DNA of 64,000 nucleotides from a virus (IMGVR_UViG_3300010352_001543); one strand, 5' to 3'. Counted from the first letter of the stretch, positions 8,140 to 45,416 are shown. Notes: generated from the sequence alone by a model not told the origin. Numbers and translations: made by a program.

Positions 8140-9066
8140 TTATTTTACAAATACTTTGCCACTTACATGACAAACTGTCCGGACATATTCCTCTGTGAAA
8201 TCTTCTTCATTGTCAGCGCAGTAGTAATTTTTCTTCACTGAAATTGGACCATCTTCTAATGTTTCTAAATAGTTTCCAACACAATAAAAACTTCCATCTA
8301 TCTTTTCGGTTACACCTTTTAAACTTGTTAATTTGTTATTATAACAAGCATAATCACCATCAACAAACAGTGGACCATTCAATATTTCTGTTAATTGATT
8401 ATCTCCGCAATTAAATTCTCCTTTAACTTGTCGCGGAAAATTAGTGGAATATTTTAGATTGTTTTCGCTACAATTGAAATCTCCAGAAATGTAACCAAAT
8501 TGAATAGGTAATGTATCTTCATAGTATCTTTTAATCTTAACATCGCCATGAACATGACAAACACCATTGGTTATCTCAAAAGTTCCTTTAACCCAAGATT
8601 TTATCAATTTAGTTAATGTAACATCTGCTGGTATAAATATCTTAGAAGGGTCTAAATGGTTACTTTTTAAAATCTCTTTTACTCTGCTTGATACATCCCA
8701 GTTGGTATTATCATATCTATATCTACTTTTAGACCAACCATTAGACCCATTAGCATACGCTTTAAACATCCCATTAGCAAAAACAAAAACAGCATAAAAA
8801 TCTGTTATTATTTTTTCTTCTTCTCTATCTACATAATTATTCACTACAATATAGTACTCGGTAGTTTCTAATTGTAAAGGTGAGCTATCTAAATTATAAT
8901 CTTTGAATAAACCACCGAATGTTGTTTTATTATCTATCAAAAATTGTCGAGCTTCGTCTTGTGATGTTGGATGAAAAATAAGCAAAGTGTTAGATTTATA
9001 CACTATTGGAAGATTATTTTTAGTTACAATTAACTCTTCATTTATTATAGTTGAAATAGTTTTCAT
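8140..9066 (-). CDS. leucine-rich-repeat-like protein
   Basis: repeated GxFxCxxNxLxxLxxxP units at the C-terminus; leader MKTISTIINEE. Confidence 0.7.
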   Translation of the reverse strand: MKTISTIINEELIVTKNNLPIVYKSNTLLIFHPTSQDEARQFLIDNKTTFGGLFKDYNLDSSPLQLETTEYYIVVNNYVDREEEKIITDFYAVFVFANGMFKAYANGSNGWSKSRYRYDNTNWDVSSRVKEILKSNHLDPSKIFIPADVTLTKLIKSWVKGTFEITNGVCHVHGDVKIKRYYEDTLPIQFGYISGDFNCSENNLKYSTNFPRQVKGEFNCGDNQLTEILNGPLFVDGDYACYNNKLTSLKGVTEKIDGSFYCVGNYLETLEDGPISVKKNYYCADNEEDFTEEYVRTVCHVSGKVFVK

Positions 9067-33675: not shown

Positions 33676-34035
33676 CTAAATGTACTTTTTAATCATATTC
33701 AATAATTCATCCGGACTAAAAGGTTTAGAAATCCAATCTACACATCCAGCATCCAACGCCTGTTGTTTATCCTTAGCAAATGCAAATGCTGTTTGTGCAA
33801 TGACCGGGATTTCCGGCTTAATTTTTTTGATCTCATTGGTTGCTTTATATCCATCCATAACAGGCATTTTCATATCCATTAAAATAAGATCTATATTAGT
33901 GTCTTCACAAAGTTTCACAGCTTCAATTCCATCCCATGCCAAAAGAAGTTTATATTTTTCATATTTCAGAACTTCTTTAATGTACATAACATTAATGTAT
34001 TCGTCTTCTACAATAAGAATAGTTTTTTCTTCCAC
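33676..34035 (-). CDS. stand-alone response-regulator receiver (CheY-like)
   Basis: IVEDE, LMDMKMP, AQTA, ISKP. Confidence 0.9.
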   Translation of the reverse strand: MEEKTILIVEDEYINVMYIKEVLKYEKYKLLLAWDGIEAVKLCEDTNIDLILMDMKMPVMDGYKATNEIKKIKPEIPVIAQTAFAFAKDKQQALDAGCVDWISKPFSPDELLNMIKKYI

Positions 34036-34451: not shown

Positions 34452-34592
34452 TTTATTTTCTTTATTTTTGATATATATATTTGATTAAAAATATTATTGA
34501 AACGTCAATAATATTTTTATTGTAAGTCGATTCTGTAATTTTTTGTTTTAATATATACTTTATAAGGAAAACATAATTAGTATATCAGAAAA

Positions 34593-35852
34593 ATGGTCCA
34601 AGTAGAACAACATATTGTTAAAAAATCCAACAGCAGTGATTGGCAAGTGATTGATCACTTAGCATTACTATCTAAGAACTTGTACAACACCTGTCTATGG
34701 ACTATCAAAAATCATTTTGAAGCAACCGGAAAGTGGATGCGCTACAACGAAATGTACCGAAAGTTTTATGATGAAAAGAATCCTTCTTTCATTGCTCTAC
34801 CAGCAGCGACTGCACAACAAATTATGATGGTGATGGATAGGAACATGAAGAGCTACTTCGCCTTACTAAAAATGTATCGAAAGAACAAAAAGTCTTTAAA
34901 CGGATGCCCTAAGTTTCCAAAGTACAAAGATAGCATTAAAGGTAGAAATATAATTATTTTTACTGCTGAAAATCAAGCAAAACTACAAAAGGATGGAACT
35001 ATCACTTTTCCAAAGAAAACTGGGCTAAGACCACTAACAACTAAAATACCAGCTGGAAGCCTAAAACAAGTAAGAATAGTGCCACAATCAAGCTGCTATG
35101 TTATTGAAGTTATTTACGAAAAAGAAGTAGTACAAGCATTTCCAGAAAATGATTCATGGTTGTCTATTGATTTAGGAATCAACAACCTAATGACATGCTT
35201 TGATACTGTTTCATCTAAACCAACAATCATCACAGGCAAGCCACTTAAATCCATCAACCAATTTTACAACAAGAAACATGCTAAATTACAATCAATTCTA
35301 CAAAAACAATACCCTAAACGACATAAGTCAAAGAAATTAAACAAACTAACAATAAAACGAAACAGAAAAATTAAGGACTACCTCCATAAGAGCTCCAGGT
35401 TTGTAGTCAATTATTGCTTAGAAAGTGGTATCTCCAACATTGCTATAGGTTACAACGCTGAGTGGAAACAAAATGTTTCACTCGGCAGCCGTATCAACCA
35501 AAACTTTGTTCAAATTCCTTTTCTAACACTAATAAATCAAATAGAATATAAAGCAGCGCTGCTTGGCATTTCAGTAACAAGGAACGAAGAATCCTACACC
35601 AGTAAGTGCTCAGCAATTGATTTAGAACCAGTTGAAAAACATGACGTTTATGCCGGAGAGCGTAAAAAACGTGGTATGTTTATTAGCGCTAAAGGTACTA
35701 AAATCAATGCTGACTTAAATGGAGCCATCAATATTCTTCGAAAGGTAGCTGGAGATAAGGAACCTGTAATGACTGTTGTAAAACAGTGGGTGCAAACTCA
35801 ATCCAGTAGAGGCCAAGTCGTTTGGCCGTTTCATGTTAACATGAATAAATAG
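34593..35852 (+). CDS. tnpB: RNA-guided endonuclease TnpB (rearranged RuvC-II type), intact
   Basis: SKNLYN, SIDLG, IGYN..WKQ, EESYTSKC, NADLNGAINI; no tnpA nearby. Confidence 0.92.
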   Translation: MVQVEQHIVKKSNSSDWQVIDHLALLSKNLYNTCLWTIKNHFEATGKWMRYNEMYRKFYDEKNPSFIALPAATAQQIMMVMDRNMKSYFALLKMYRKNKKSLNGCPKFPKYKDSIKGRNIIIFTAENQAKLQKDGTITFPKKTGLRPLTTKIPAGSLKQVRIVPQSSCYVIEVIYEKEVVQAFPENDSWLSIDLGINNLMTCFDTVSSKPTIITGKPLKSINQFYNKKHAKLQSILQKQYPKRHKSKKLNKLTIKRNRKIKDYLHKSSRFVVNYCLESGISNIAIGYNAEWKQNVSLGSRINQNFVQIPFLTLINQIEYKAALLGISVTRNEESYTSKCSAIDLEPVEKHDVYAGERKKRGMFISAKGTKINADLNGAINILRKVAGDKEPVMTVVKQWVQTQSSRGQVVWPFHVNMNK

Positions 35853-35906
35853 TTTTTAAAGAGCATTCTTTTTAAGCTAATACGATCAGCGTCTATCAGA
35901 GAATCA
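35790..35906 (+). ncRNA. omegaRNA 3' scaffold plus predicted guide (from about 35887) of tnpB copy 1
   Basis: GGCCAA-GTCGT-TTGGCC hairpin whose loop can pair with terminal ACGAT; hairpins covary with copy 2. Confidence 0.65.
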
Positions 35907-36034
35907 AAATATTCACAATAGTAATCAGGAAAAACTTCATATTTTTGGAAGTAGTCGCATTCTTCAGAACATTTGGTATGGTCCGAATCATCAATCGCTA
36001 TTTCAAAATATTCTATAGCTACTAATACTTTCAT
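35831..36034 (-). pseudogene. Cys-rich paralog with C-terminus replaced by tnpB cassette end
   Basis: lacks the terminal RCxxC of its paralogs; junction at ..DADR|ISLK. Confidence 0.5.
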
Positions 36035-42118: not shown

Positions 42119-42595
42119 CTAATTCTTCAAATTCTTTATTTGTTTAATGAATTCATTTTCGATTGCTCTTATTCTTGGCTTAATATCCGATTTTGATTTG
42201 ACTGGTAATAGTTCATATCGATTTGTATCGTTTTTGAACCAGGCTACATCTAATTTAGTAGGATTACCTTCTTGTAAATCGTCATCGAACCAGTCATCCG
42301 GATAAATATAGATTGTATGAACAGTGTCTATATATTCTGCTATTTCTTGATTAAAACGATATAATGTATTTTTATCAAACCGGGTATACGGTACTAACTC
42401 CCATCCATCATTGTATTGATTGATATTGGATTCATAATTTTTCAAAAGTTCTTTATCAACTAATTTTTTGTAAATAGGATCCAACCGTTTTTGTAATTTA
42501 AACATTGTTGTCCTGATGGCATCCGATGACATTACTGTTTCATTTTCTTCATTAAGAAAATTGCTATATGTTTTTATATGTTTTAGTGGTTGCAT
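42119..42595 (-). CDS. CTS-leader hypothetical protein
   Basis: MQPLKHIKTYSNFLNEE. Confidence 0.55.
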   Translation of the reverse strand: MQPLKHIKTYSNFLNEENETVMSSDAIRTTMFKLQKRLDPIYKKLVDKELLKNYESNINQYNDGWELVPYTRFDKNTLYRFNQEIAEYIDTVHTIYIYPDDWFDDDLQEGNPTKLDVAWFKNDTNRYELLPVKSKSDIKPRIRAIENEFIKQIKNLKN

Positions 42596-42624
42596 ACTTT
42601 TTTGTTAATATTTAAATTATATAT

Positions 42625-42654
42625 TAAAGACGTTACAATTGAAATTTTATTGTA
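42625..42654 (-). promoter_or_regulatory. promoter TACAAT-N16-CGTC, back-to-back with tnpB cassette 2
   Basis: motif copy. Confidence 0.7.
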
Positions 42655-42723
42655 AATCGGTTCTGTAAATTTTTGTTTTAATATATACTGTATAAGAAAA
42701 ATATAAATTAGTTATACACTATA

Positions 42724-43972
42724 ATGGTCCAAGTAGAACAACATATAGTTAAAAAATCCAACATCAGAAAGAGTGACTGGCAAGTGATTGATCACTTAGC
42801 ATTCTTGTCTAAAAACTTGTACAATACTTGTCTATGGACCATCAAAAATCATTTTGAAGCAACCGGAAAGTGGATGCGATACAACGAAATGTATAGAAAG
42901 TTCTATGACGAGCAGAATCCTGCTTTCTTTGCTCTACCGGCAGCGACTGCTCAGCAAATTATGATGTTGATGGACAAAAACATGAAGTCTTACTTCGCCC
43001 TGCTAAAAATGTATCGAAAGAACAAAAAGTTATTGAATGGCTGCCCACAGTTTCCTAAGTACAAAGACAGTGTCAATGGAAGAAATGTTGTCATTTTTAC
43101 TTCTATTCAAGCAAGGCTACAAAAAGATGAGACAATTAATTTTCCAAAGAAAACTGACCTAAGACCACTAAAGACTAAAATTCCAGCTGGAAGCCTGAAA
43201 CAAGTAAGGATCATTCCTCAATCGTCCTGCTATATCATTGAAGTTGTCTATGAAAAAGAAGTAGTGCAAGCATTTCCTCCTAATGATTCCTGGTTGTCTA
43301 TCGACCTTGGAGTCAATAACTTAATGACCTGTTTTGATACTGTTTCCAACAAACCAACAATAGTAAACGGTAAACCACTCAAATCCATCAACCAATTCTA
43401 CAACAAGAAACATGCTAAACTACAATCACAACTACAAAAACAGTATCCAAAACGACATAAGTCAAAAAAACTAAATAAATTAACAACAAAAAGAAATCGT
43501 AAAATTAAAGACTACCTCCACAAGAGTTCCAGGTTTGTAGTCAATTATTGCTTGGAAGCAGGCATCTCCAACATTGTAGTAGGTTACAACGCTGAGTGGA
43601 AACAAAACGTTCAGCTCGGCAGTCGCACCAATCAAAACTTTGTTCAAATACCTTTTCTAACACTAATAAATCAAATAGAATACAAAGCAGCACTGCTTGG
43701 CATAACTGTTGTAAGGAACGAAGAATCCTACACCAGTAAGTGCTCAGCGATGGACCTTGAACCAGTTAAAAAACATGACATATTGCGGTAAGCGCATAAA
43801 GCGCGGCATGTTTATAACTGCTAACGGAACTAAGATCAATGCTGATTTAAATGGAGCAATAAATATTCTTCGAAAGGTAGCCGGAGATAAGGAACAAATT
43901 ATTAAATTTGTTCAAACTCAATCTAGTAGAGGTCAAGTCGTTTGGCCGTTTCATGTATGCATGAATAAATAG
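42724..43972 (+). pseudogene. tnpB: TnpB copy 2 with a 2-nt deletion frameshift near 43780, before RuvC-III
   Basis: highly similar to copy 1; CATGACGTTTAT vs CATGACATAT; C-terminus continues in ORF 43757..43972. Confidence 0.88.
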
Positions 43973-44011
43973 TTTTTAAAACTAATACGATACTGATTTT
44001 CTCAACGAAGA
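43910..44011 (+). ncRNA. omegaRNA 3' scaffold plus predicted guide (from about 43992) of tnpB copy 2
   Basis: same hairpins and pseudoknot potential; scaffold ends CTAATACGAT as in copy 1. Confidence 0.65.
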
Positions 44012-44143
44012 AAATGAGGTAGTGATGGCTTCCGATACCATCCAAGCAACGATAAATTACAAAAACAATTAGATCCAATCTACAAAAAATTAGTTGATAA
44101 AGGACTTATAAAAAGTTATAAATTCAGAATCGATCAATCGTAT
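43992..44143 (+). pseudogene. inverted, diverged fragment of the 42119..42595 gene
   Basis: TDFLNEENEVVMASDTIQAT/KLQKQLDPIYKKLVDKGLIKSY vs SNFLNEENETVMSSDAIRTTMFKLQKRLDPIYKKLVDKELLKNY. Confidence 0.85.
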
Positions 44144-44675
44144 GTTTTAATCGACTCATAATTTTTACCTATAATTTCCAGCCATCTTTTATGGCTTCTT
44201 GTTTTGTTCGATATCCTGAAATTTTAGAAACATAAGTTAAGTCCAATTCAAAATAAGCATAGAAATAAATATCATCACCATCCGGATAAATTCGACTTAA
44301 TATTATAGGAGCACCTTCTGCCACATTGATAGTATATCCTCCTATATTATCATTAATTTTTCCACCAAAATTAAATTGGTTGAATTCAGTAACATAAGGA
44401 GTTCGAGGACCTCTGTGATTATCAAAACTTTTAGAATCTTTTGCTAAAATCAATACTTTTTCATAGTTAGATTCAAGTGAAATGGAAACATCTTTTTTAG
44501 TATTTCCTCTTGGTATCATGTATAAACCTGGATGGTGATGAGTTGATATAGTGTGTTTGAAAATCTGATAAATATCCCCTTGATAAACAACTAACATCCC
44601 TTCTTTGAAGCTGTCCAAAATATTATGTTCGTTCCGTTCAAACAATTTAATACGCTCACTGAATTTTTTCATAAT

Positions 44676-45416
44676 TTATTTATAGCAAGCGGCTCCTTCA
44701 TCACCATAAATCCAAACTACTGTTTCCGAGTTGTTTTTACATGCTATTAGTTCTATTGAAACCAATTCATCATAATCCAACTCATCCAAATATTCTTCAA
44801 CAGTACCGGTATCATATCTTTTTATGCGATTAAAATTATTTCCGGTTTCTTTTGCTATAACAACCCAAGGTTTATCTCCATAGTCCATTGCTATCATTTC
44901 TGGTTTAACGTCTTTGAAAGGAATAAGTTTACCCCAATCATTAGATTCATTTAAACTACTATAACTGTTTGATTTTTTGCTTTCATTTACACCACCGAAT
45001 AGATTATTAAACCAATCCTCGTAAACATCCAATCCCCATTCAATACAAGGTTTCCCTTTAAAATAACCACTTAAATTATTAGTATTAAAATTAGCGGCTG
45101 GTTTTGTTAAATTTTTACCGGTGAATATTATAAGAGTATCATATTCAGGTTTTTTACTGCCTGTGGGTTTATGCCCTTGTGCCATTATAGTATGACCATT
45201 TGATAAAACTATAGTATATTCATAATCTTCTTCACCTTCAGTTACTTCAGCTTTTATGCTTTCGATTGTTATATCAACCGGTTTCGGTACAGCATGAAAT
45301 TTATATTTTTTCAATCTACTTATAACTGCAGATTCGGTTGTTTTATCGTCTTCCCATTTGACATCAAAAGAAGATTCATTTAAAGCAAATTCATTGAATT
45401 TTTTTGTTCTTTGCAT
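44676..45416 (-). CDS. two-domain CTS-leader protein with internal NES-type linker
   Basis: MQRTKKFNEFALNES; internal VNESKKSNSYSSLNES. Confidence 0.5.
   Translation of the reverse strand: MQRTKKFNEFALNESSFDVKWEDDKTTESAVISRLKKYKFHAVPKPVDITIESIKAEVTEGEEDYEYTIVLSNGHTIMAQGHKPTGSKKPEYDTLIIFTGKNLTKPAANFNTNNLSGYFKGKPCIEWGLDVYEDWFNNLFGGVNESKKSNSYSSLNESNDWGKLIPFKDVKPEMIAMDYGDKPWVVIAKETGNNFNRIKRYDTGTVEEYLDELDYDELVSIELIACKNNSETVVWIYGDEGAACYK

Follow-up and report, generated by a model that had tools for sequence, protein, structure and literature searches.

A frameshifted tnpB element beside two divergent alleles of one phage gene probably marks a scar of rearrangement and recombination

The locus described here spans positions 42,119 to 44,143 of a 64,000-nucleotide stretch of viral DNA (IMGVR_UViG_3300010352_001543), and this whole stretch is referred to as the window. 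The window is an AT-rich part of a large phage. Contigs as long as 280 kb carry the same proteins, which are also found on ENA, JGI and Logan assemblies, and the sequencing runs that contain the stretch are activated-sludge metagenomes. Nearly all genes of the window lie on the minus strand, and the sole large plus-strand ORFs are two tnpB genes; no tnpA was found next to either copy.

Both genes belong to tnpB-only elements of the IS200/IS605 type. Copy 1 (34527..35886, plus strand) encodes an intact TnpB of 419 aa (34593-35852) with the domains PF01385 (OrfB_IS605, 1.3e-22) and PF07282 (zinc-ribbon-like TNB, 2.1e-10), and was used to define the ends of the element. Copy 2 (42657..43991, plus strand), the one at the locus, consists of a left end (LE, 42657-42723), tnpB and a right end (RE) that finishes in ACGAT, and its TnpB is 88% identical to that of copy 1 over the aligned residues. 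The position of the end at 43991 is supported by copy 1 (RE end 35886) and by the elements L135, L136, L139 and L005, all of which finish in ACGAT and diverge completely beyond it. The last ~185 nt of copy 2 (43807..43991, plus strand), up to this invariant ACGAT, are a conserved structured 3' region that resembles an omegaRNA scaffold. Folding of five elements with RNAalifold gave 37 consensus pairs, nine of them with compensatory changes, and no Rfam family matches this RNA. The same 280-kb genome has at least two more intact copies, which makes at least four tnpB copies in one phage genome when L135 and L136 are counted with the two in the window, and TnpB relatives in the genome contigs collection reach only 41-44% identity.

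The reading frame of copy 2 (42724..43972, plus strand) is broken. A 2-nt deletion (AC) at 43778..43781 on the plus strand, which turns GACACATAT into GACATAT relative to the closest intact copy, L136, causes a frameshift, so that 42724..43791 encodes 355 aa and the Asp of NADLNGA falls in another frame at 43781..43972. The 355-aa part retains the RuvC-I Asp (SIDLG, residue 194) and the Glu of NEESYTSK, whereas the deletion cuts off the RuvC-III Asp (NADLNGA). Judged by motif matches, the RuvC triad is therefore absent from any one frame of copy 2, whereas copy 1 has all three motifs. The deletion is also present in independent assemblies such as L001, a 217-kb ENA contig from another study, and the frame downstream of it is still conserved against a 92%-identical intact copy (dN/dS 0.13-0.20). 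The element copies differ from each other with a dS of 0.4-1.0 and a dN/dS of about 0.1. These many synonymous differences and the low dN/dS indicate that the copies are old, selected paralogues and that the frameshift is recent. Copy 2 is also a mosaic, with its first ~400 nt closest to copy 1 and the remainder closest to L136 (100% over ~250 nt), and therefore IS copies recombine in the phage. Within tnpB of copy 2, the otherwise identical L001 contig differs from the window in a patch of ~40 nt (43217-43255), which could reflect gene conversion between IS copies or mixing of copies during assembly.

The left ends of eight family members were aligned on a conserved AATATATA(C/T) block. The sequence to the left of the element reads TGTAA in copy 1, copy 2, L137 and L138, AGTAA in L141, TTTAA in L136 and TATAA/AAAAA in L135. 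We infer from this alignment that the transposon-adjacent motif (TAM) of the TnpB family is NGTAA, mostly TGTAA; no literature on a TGTAA TAM was found. An empty site for copy 1, from which the TAM could be read, was not obtained, as two different genes occupy this position in the relative L130 and the divergence of the neighbour is too great. At this copy-1 locus (35831-36034), a small Cys-rich neighbour ORF now ends inside the RE of the element, and L130 (4685-5829) carries a longer, 91-aa homologue of that ORF and a 277-aa gene with no IS. A gene for a stand-alone response-regulator receiver domain (PF00072 in the annotation of relatives) lies just downstream of the copy-1 locus at 33676-34035.

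At copy 2, the motif TGTAA(A) (42651..42656, plus strand) lies directly 5' of the LE. Like its relatives, the element thus abuts TGTAA at the edge of a promoter-like motif (42629..42655, minus strand; GACGT-N12-TTTATTGTAA on the plus strand), which now drives the intact gene to its left. In the window, the TTTATTGTAA part of this motif occurs nine times in exact form (plus coordinates 1795, 5554, 17207, 17534, 34516, 42028, 42646, 47170 and 52173), on one strand only and each after a GACGT-like sequence. These promoter-like modules usually follow an A-run and a hairpin, and all point in the direction of the minus-strand genes. The TGTAA that ends the promoter motif is the exact position of three independent tnpB elements, at 34516-34526, at 42646-42656 and at about 540-560 of L138. 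The -35-like box of the promoter doubles as the insertion motif; either the elements prefer this site or the phage tolerates them there.

The gene to the left of the element, allele A (42119..42595, minus strand), is an intact phage gene of 158 aa. Pfam assigns its product no function, with no family above the cut-off. No loci of this ORF158 were found in viral contigs, and a word-indexed protein search returned its own protein alone; a full HMMER search returned a 71-aa product of the related phage L009 (81% identity) and about 50 distant homologues with 25-40% identity. A second version of the gene, allele B, is found in two pieces on the other side of tnpB. The larger piece is an inverted, decayed fragment (43992..44138, plus strand) that starts immediately after the RE and corresponds to codons 11 to ~60 of ORF 42119..42595. 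Read on the plus strand from 43992, it begins with TDFLNEENEVVMASD and then runs into a frameshift and stops, with a net 4-nt deletion near 44043-44052. A repeat search detected the inverted arms as two blocks, 42415-42500 with 44053-44138 (86 nt, 84%) and 42504-42561 with 43996-44053 (58 nt, 74%). Local alignment merges these into one 143-nt match of 43996-44138 with 42561-42415, in which the right copy has the net 4-nt deletion, and BLASTN of the fragment against the intact allele gives 77.6% over 147 nt (E ~1e-27). The fragment, of ~145 nt and roughly 78% identity, confirms an earlier, sequence-only reading of this DNA, which had described about 150 bp of a diverged, frameshifted and inverted copy right after the ACGAT at 43991. 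That reading had also taken the 5' piece of the broken allele to be missing, which proved incorrect. This piece is an 18-nt remnant (44142..44159, minus strand; ATGAGTCGATTAAAACAT, encoding MSRLKH, with its ATG at 44159) that remains in the native place of the gene, 9 nt past the stop of ORF167, and stands head to head with the fragment of codons 11-60.

The phage L009 shows what an uninterrupted locus looks like. It has the same gene order and has kept the ancestral layout, in which ORF167 is followed by a 10-nt spacer, by the gene as a single copy, and then by a terminator and the next promoter. It is without the IS and without the promoter motif before the gene, where the 10-nt spacer stands, and its terminator and promoter after the gene are the same as those of the window (42118->42050). 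In the window, the upstream operon neighbour ORF167 (44169..44672, minus strand) has 92.9% nucleotide identity to its L009 homologue, which gives the baseline divergence. The homology between the window and L009 continues from ORF167 across the spacer and takes in the first 17-18 nt of the gene, where the remnant is identical to the L009 gene start at 15 of 18 positions, and ends at 44142. Allele B was therefore the resident gene here.

Other differences between the two phages were seen around this locus. The 246-aa ORF upstream of ORF167 (44676-45416) has no counterpart in L009, in which a 191-aa gene directly precedes the ORF167 homologue. L009 has an in-frame TGA at 8214-8216 where allele A has CGG (Arg), with the frame open beyond it; a nonsense polymorphism, recoding or an error could account for this. 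Near the 3' end of allele A (42119-42150), the window has a 1-nt deletion in an A-run relative to L009, which alters the last residues to KQIKNLKN* from KQIKEFEDLVNII* in L009.

Comparison of the three sequences over 154 nt, with L009 as the one relative available, gave 15 unique changes in allele A, 20 in fragment B and 2 in L009. Alleles A and B differ at 36 of these 154 positions, and the two differ from L009 at 18 and 23, respectively. Because the distance between A and B is greater than that of either to L009, the alleles come from different lineages. A recent inverted duplication within the genome was rejected by this three-way divergence, which supports the earlier suggestion that the guide region is a diverged allele of the neighbouring gene. 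The divergence of allele A from L009 is uneven, with 18 of the first 75 nt differing (24%) against 41 of the remaining 402 (10%; p=0.002). From this pattern, the intact gene looks like a foreign promoter and 5' end joined to the resident 3' part. Fragment B is uneven as well. Its first 50 nt, which include the guide, are 94% identical to L009 and hold 3 unique changes, against 11 in the 38 nt at its end (p=0.006). The better conservation of the guide-proximal part could reflect a constraint on the guide.

The guide-equivalent 20 nt directly after the scaffold (43992..44011, plus strand) correspond to codons 11-17 of allele B. This guide, ACTGATTTTCTCAACGAAGA, agrees with the carrier's own allele A, AGCAATTTTCTTAATGAAGA, at 15 of 20 positions, with mismatches at positions 2, 3, 4, 12 and 15; the earlier count of five mismatches to the carrier's intact allele, three of them at positions 2-4, was thus correct. 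The L009 allele matches at 19 of 20 positions, the sole mismatch being at position 3. The matching sites are preceded by AAACATAC (ACATAC) in L009 and by ACATAT in allele A, with no NGTAA at either, so that if an NGTAA-type requirement of the TnpB is real, neither allele is a substrate. The expectation that a relative would carry the target allele is therefore borne out only as far as L009 has it at the same locus; the match is imperfect, and the NGTAA TAM is absent. No other targets of the guide were found in the window. The exact 20-nt guide was found in neither the viral contigs nor the metagenome contigs collections, its 17-nt core had more than 120 metagenome matches, all unrelated by BLAST, and a 23-nt core had no match in viral contigs. 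Likewise, the protein and DNA collections searched contained neither an exact target nor a second lineage bearing the cassette of guide fragment, IS, promoter and 5' gene end.

A short patch at the junction between the fragment and the remnant (44120..44143, minus strand) reads ATACGAT, TG, ATCGATTCTG and AATTT from 44143 to 44120 on the minus strand. It is composed of the last 7 nt of the RE (ATACGAT) followed by a near-copy of the LE start. The 9-mer TCGATTCTG occurs three times and the 7-mer ATACGAT twelve times in 128 kb of both strands, and with words this rare, coincidence is an improbable explanation of their adjacency at the junction. When the patch was aligned to the LE with gaps, the score was not significant, since 8.7% of random windows reach it; all support for the patch thus comes from the rarity of the exact 9-mer and 7-mer. 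The patch seems to resemble the short templated insertions of complex replication-based rearrangements, and its derivation from a single event was not achieved.

The structure is not an assembly artefact. Several contigs end inside the IS, and the IS has ~5x the depth of unique sequence, as might be expected if a chimera had formed at a repeated IS. However, the independent L001 contig crosses the whole structure identically, and both outer junctions are crossed with 0 differences by Logan contigs of 2.1 kb and 15.5 kb from two activated-sludge runs, which leaves a chimera with next to no probability. All contigs that carry the cassette belong to one phage. The contigs of four runs contained neither an IS-less joint (for which the canonical empty site would read TGTAA(A)+ACTGATTTTC), nor an intact B allele, nor the opposite isomer; these absences say little because rare variants are lost from contigs.

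Taken together, the locus is probably the scar of an IS-associated inversion or other rearrangement and of recombination between two phage lineages, with the guide being simply the flank. In this scenario, inversion or faulty repair would have affected a segment with the IS and the start of the resident gene. Recombination with another lineage or with the flank of another IS copy, using homology in the IS on one side and in the gene on the other, would then have supplied the promoter and a new 5' end, such that the gene was restored under its own promoter. The omegaRNA of copy 2 would then carry an allele B guide and would have only the usual selfish role of the family, which is to re-cut the joint of TGTAA(A) and flank after loss of the element (PMC8612924; 10.1101/2023.03.14.532601). 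As the local tnpB is frameshifted, this guide could act only through the intact paralogues.

Several lines of evidence argue for the scar. The L009 locus is uninterrupted and single-copy, its collinear homology with the window covers ORF167 and the first 17-18 nt of the gene before ending at 44142, and the inverted fragment starts exactly at the RE end. The two alleles come from different lineages (36 differences in 154 nt between them against 18 and 23 to L009), and allele A is itself a hybrid of a foreign-looking first ~75-100 nt and a resident-like remainder. The IS is likewise a mosaic of copy-1-like and L136-like parts, and an IS-end-like patch sits at the junction. Finally, NGTAA adjoins the LE but is lacking at the sites that match the guide, the tnpB is frameshifted, the fragment is decayed by an indel and stops, and the guide lacks another target in the window. 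An old insertion followed by rearrangement had been named as the alternative in the sequence-only reading, and with the 5' remnant in place, the head-to-head junction, the mosaic IS and the mosaic allele A, it fits better than the cleave-and-rescue system or inter-phage weapon proposed there.

Some observations nevertheless count against the scar. The order of events was not reconstructed, and a simple one-step inversion model was rejected as it fails to reproduce the left junction. The junction between the RE and codon 11 has no NGTAA on its gene side in any known allele and therefore does not look like a canonical insertion. The exact abutment of promoter edge, IS and fragment is an unexplained coincidence, and the conservation next to the guide, measured against a single relative, could mean that the guide is constrained.

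It is also conceivable, although we regard it as unlikely, that the IS is a bystander, and that a partial inverted duplication or recombination of the 5' region near a terminator-promoter module came first, followed by canonical insertion of the element at the promoter TGTAA bordering the fragment. The canonical TAM at the promoter edge on the left, as in copy 1 and L138, and the precision of both element ends agree with such an order, and promoter modules repeated at least nine times could mediate recombination. However, the insertion point would have to match an older breakpoint within 1 nt, and both the IS-end-like patch at 44120-44143 and the mosaic IS are left without account. A nuclease-dead regulator resembling TldR, in which the truncated 355-aa TnpB and the omegaRNA bind the 5' coding region of the gene and repress it, seems highly improbable. 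The frameshift does drop the RuvC-III Asp while keeping most of the protein, and the guide lies within the 5' coding region of a member of the gene family. Yet the deletion is recent, with the downstream frame conserved and the closest copy intact, neither allele has a TAM, and the carrier's own allele has five mismatches.

A functional role for the guide deserves closer scrutiny. In a form of RNA-guided allele exclusion analogous to intronless homing, the omegaRNA of copy 2 and an intact TnpB paralogue would cut B- or L009-type alleles of co-infecting relatives, and repair from the carrier would bring in the IS, the promoter and a resistant A-type 5' end. A natural allele at the same locus does match the guide at 19 of 20 positions, the carrier allele has five mismatches with three of them at positions 2-4, and allele A is most diverged beside the element. 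The omegaRNA scaffold is intact, the intact paralogues in the genome are under purifying selection (dN/dS about 0.1), the layout allows repair across ORF167 and the 3' part of the gene, the guide-proximal part of the fragment is the better conserved one, and homing of this transposon type to co-infecting phages has been discussed as theoretically possible (PMC13565253). Against this, the match is not preceded by NGTAA in either L009 or allele A, and the sole known near-match has its mismatch at position 3, beside the TAM. A frameshift ahead of the RuvC-III Asp breaks the cognate tnpB, neither an exact target nor a second cassette-bearing lineage was found in the protein and DNA collections, and ~125 nt of useless decayed fragment are kept. 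These points also speak against the proposed weapon, and make allele exclusion improbable. The more specific proposal has slightly less chance still. Here the copy-2 omegaRNA would act in trans with intact paralogues to cut the B- or L009-type alleles of co-infecting relatives, and repair would insert the guide fragment, the IS, the promoter and the resistant 5' end as one self-contained cassette, an RNA-guided counterpart of T4-type intronless homing in which the gene is kept. What we find at the L009 site is a 19/20 match flanked by AAACATAC and not by NGTAA, and at the carrier allele five mismatches and no TAM, with which the carrier's own gene would escape recognition; a cassette in several lineages with co-converted flanks was not found, all carriers being the same phage.

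If the recombination scar holds, the locus is a worked case of tnpB elements and repeated promoter modules reshuffling alleles in large environmental phages. It would be a broken gene rescued by recombination with a relative, which is useful background and no surprise. It also carries a caution, in that a guide matching a gene of a relative can arise passively by rearrangement, and the flank motif should be checked before function is claimed. Were the minority reading true, this would be the first natural use of TnpB for allele-specific competition between phages.

The element resembles the tnpB-only (IS1341-like) members of the IS200/IS605 TnpB/omegaRNA group, for which ISDra2 is the reference (PMC8612924; homing 10.1101/2023.03.14.532601). 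It shares with them the OrfB_IS605 and Cas12f1-like TNB domains, a structured 3' RNA that overlaps the end of the gene and terminates at a sharply defined RE, a flank that is the guide and a motif 5' of the LE. In contrast to that group, the window contains no tnpA, GYN stands where the RuvC-II Glu is usually found while NEESYTSK supplies a Glu instead, and CxxC pairs are missing. It also differs in its setting, a large phage genome with at least four such elements that frequently lie at the TGTAA of a promoter of the phage, and in that copy 2 is frameshifted and flanked by the other allele of a neighbouring gene. The free-standing homing endonucleases SegF/SegG and Mob of T-even phages, whose intronless homing and marker exclusion are reviewed in PMC13565253, offer a second comparison. 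There too, a nuclease gene lies between conserved phage genes, and the carrier's neighbouring allele differs from that of the relative at the recognised site and is most diverged next to the nuclease gene. Unlike in T-even homing, an RNA would provide the recognition here, the site in the relative lacks the flank motif, and no spread of the cassette was seen. TldR proteins (the subject of Wiegand et al. 2024) are reportedly TnpB-like nuclease-dead repressors that lack the last RuvC residue and whose guide matches a gene with a second divergent copy on the mobile element. Copy 2 likewise encodes a TnpB derivative without the last RuvC residue and has a guide that matches a gene with a second divergent copy; unlike TldR, it owes this to a fresh 2-nt slip and not to a conserved shortened gene, and its guide lies in coding sequence without a TAM. 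The tnpB of cyanophage A-1(L) is also phage-borne and lies beside inverted repeats and a segment inversion (bioRxiv 10.64898/2026.02.14.705889). The A-1(L) module is large, reversible and found in both orientations, whereas the arms here are 150 nt, 78% alike and found in one form. The locus is best described as a tnpB-only IS200/IS605-type phage element with an unusually informative rearrangement beside it.
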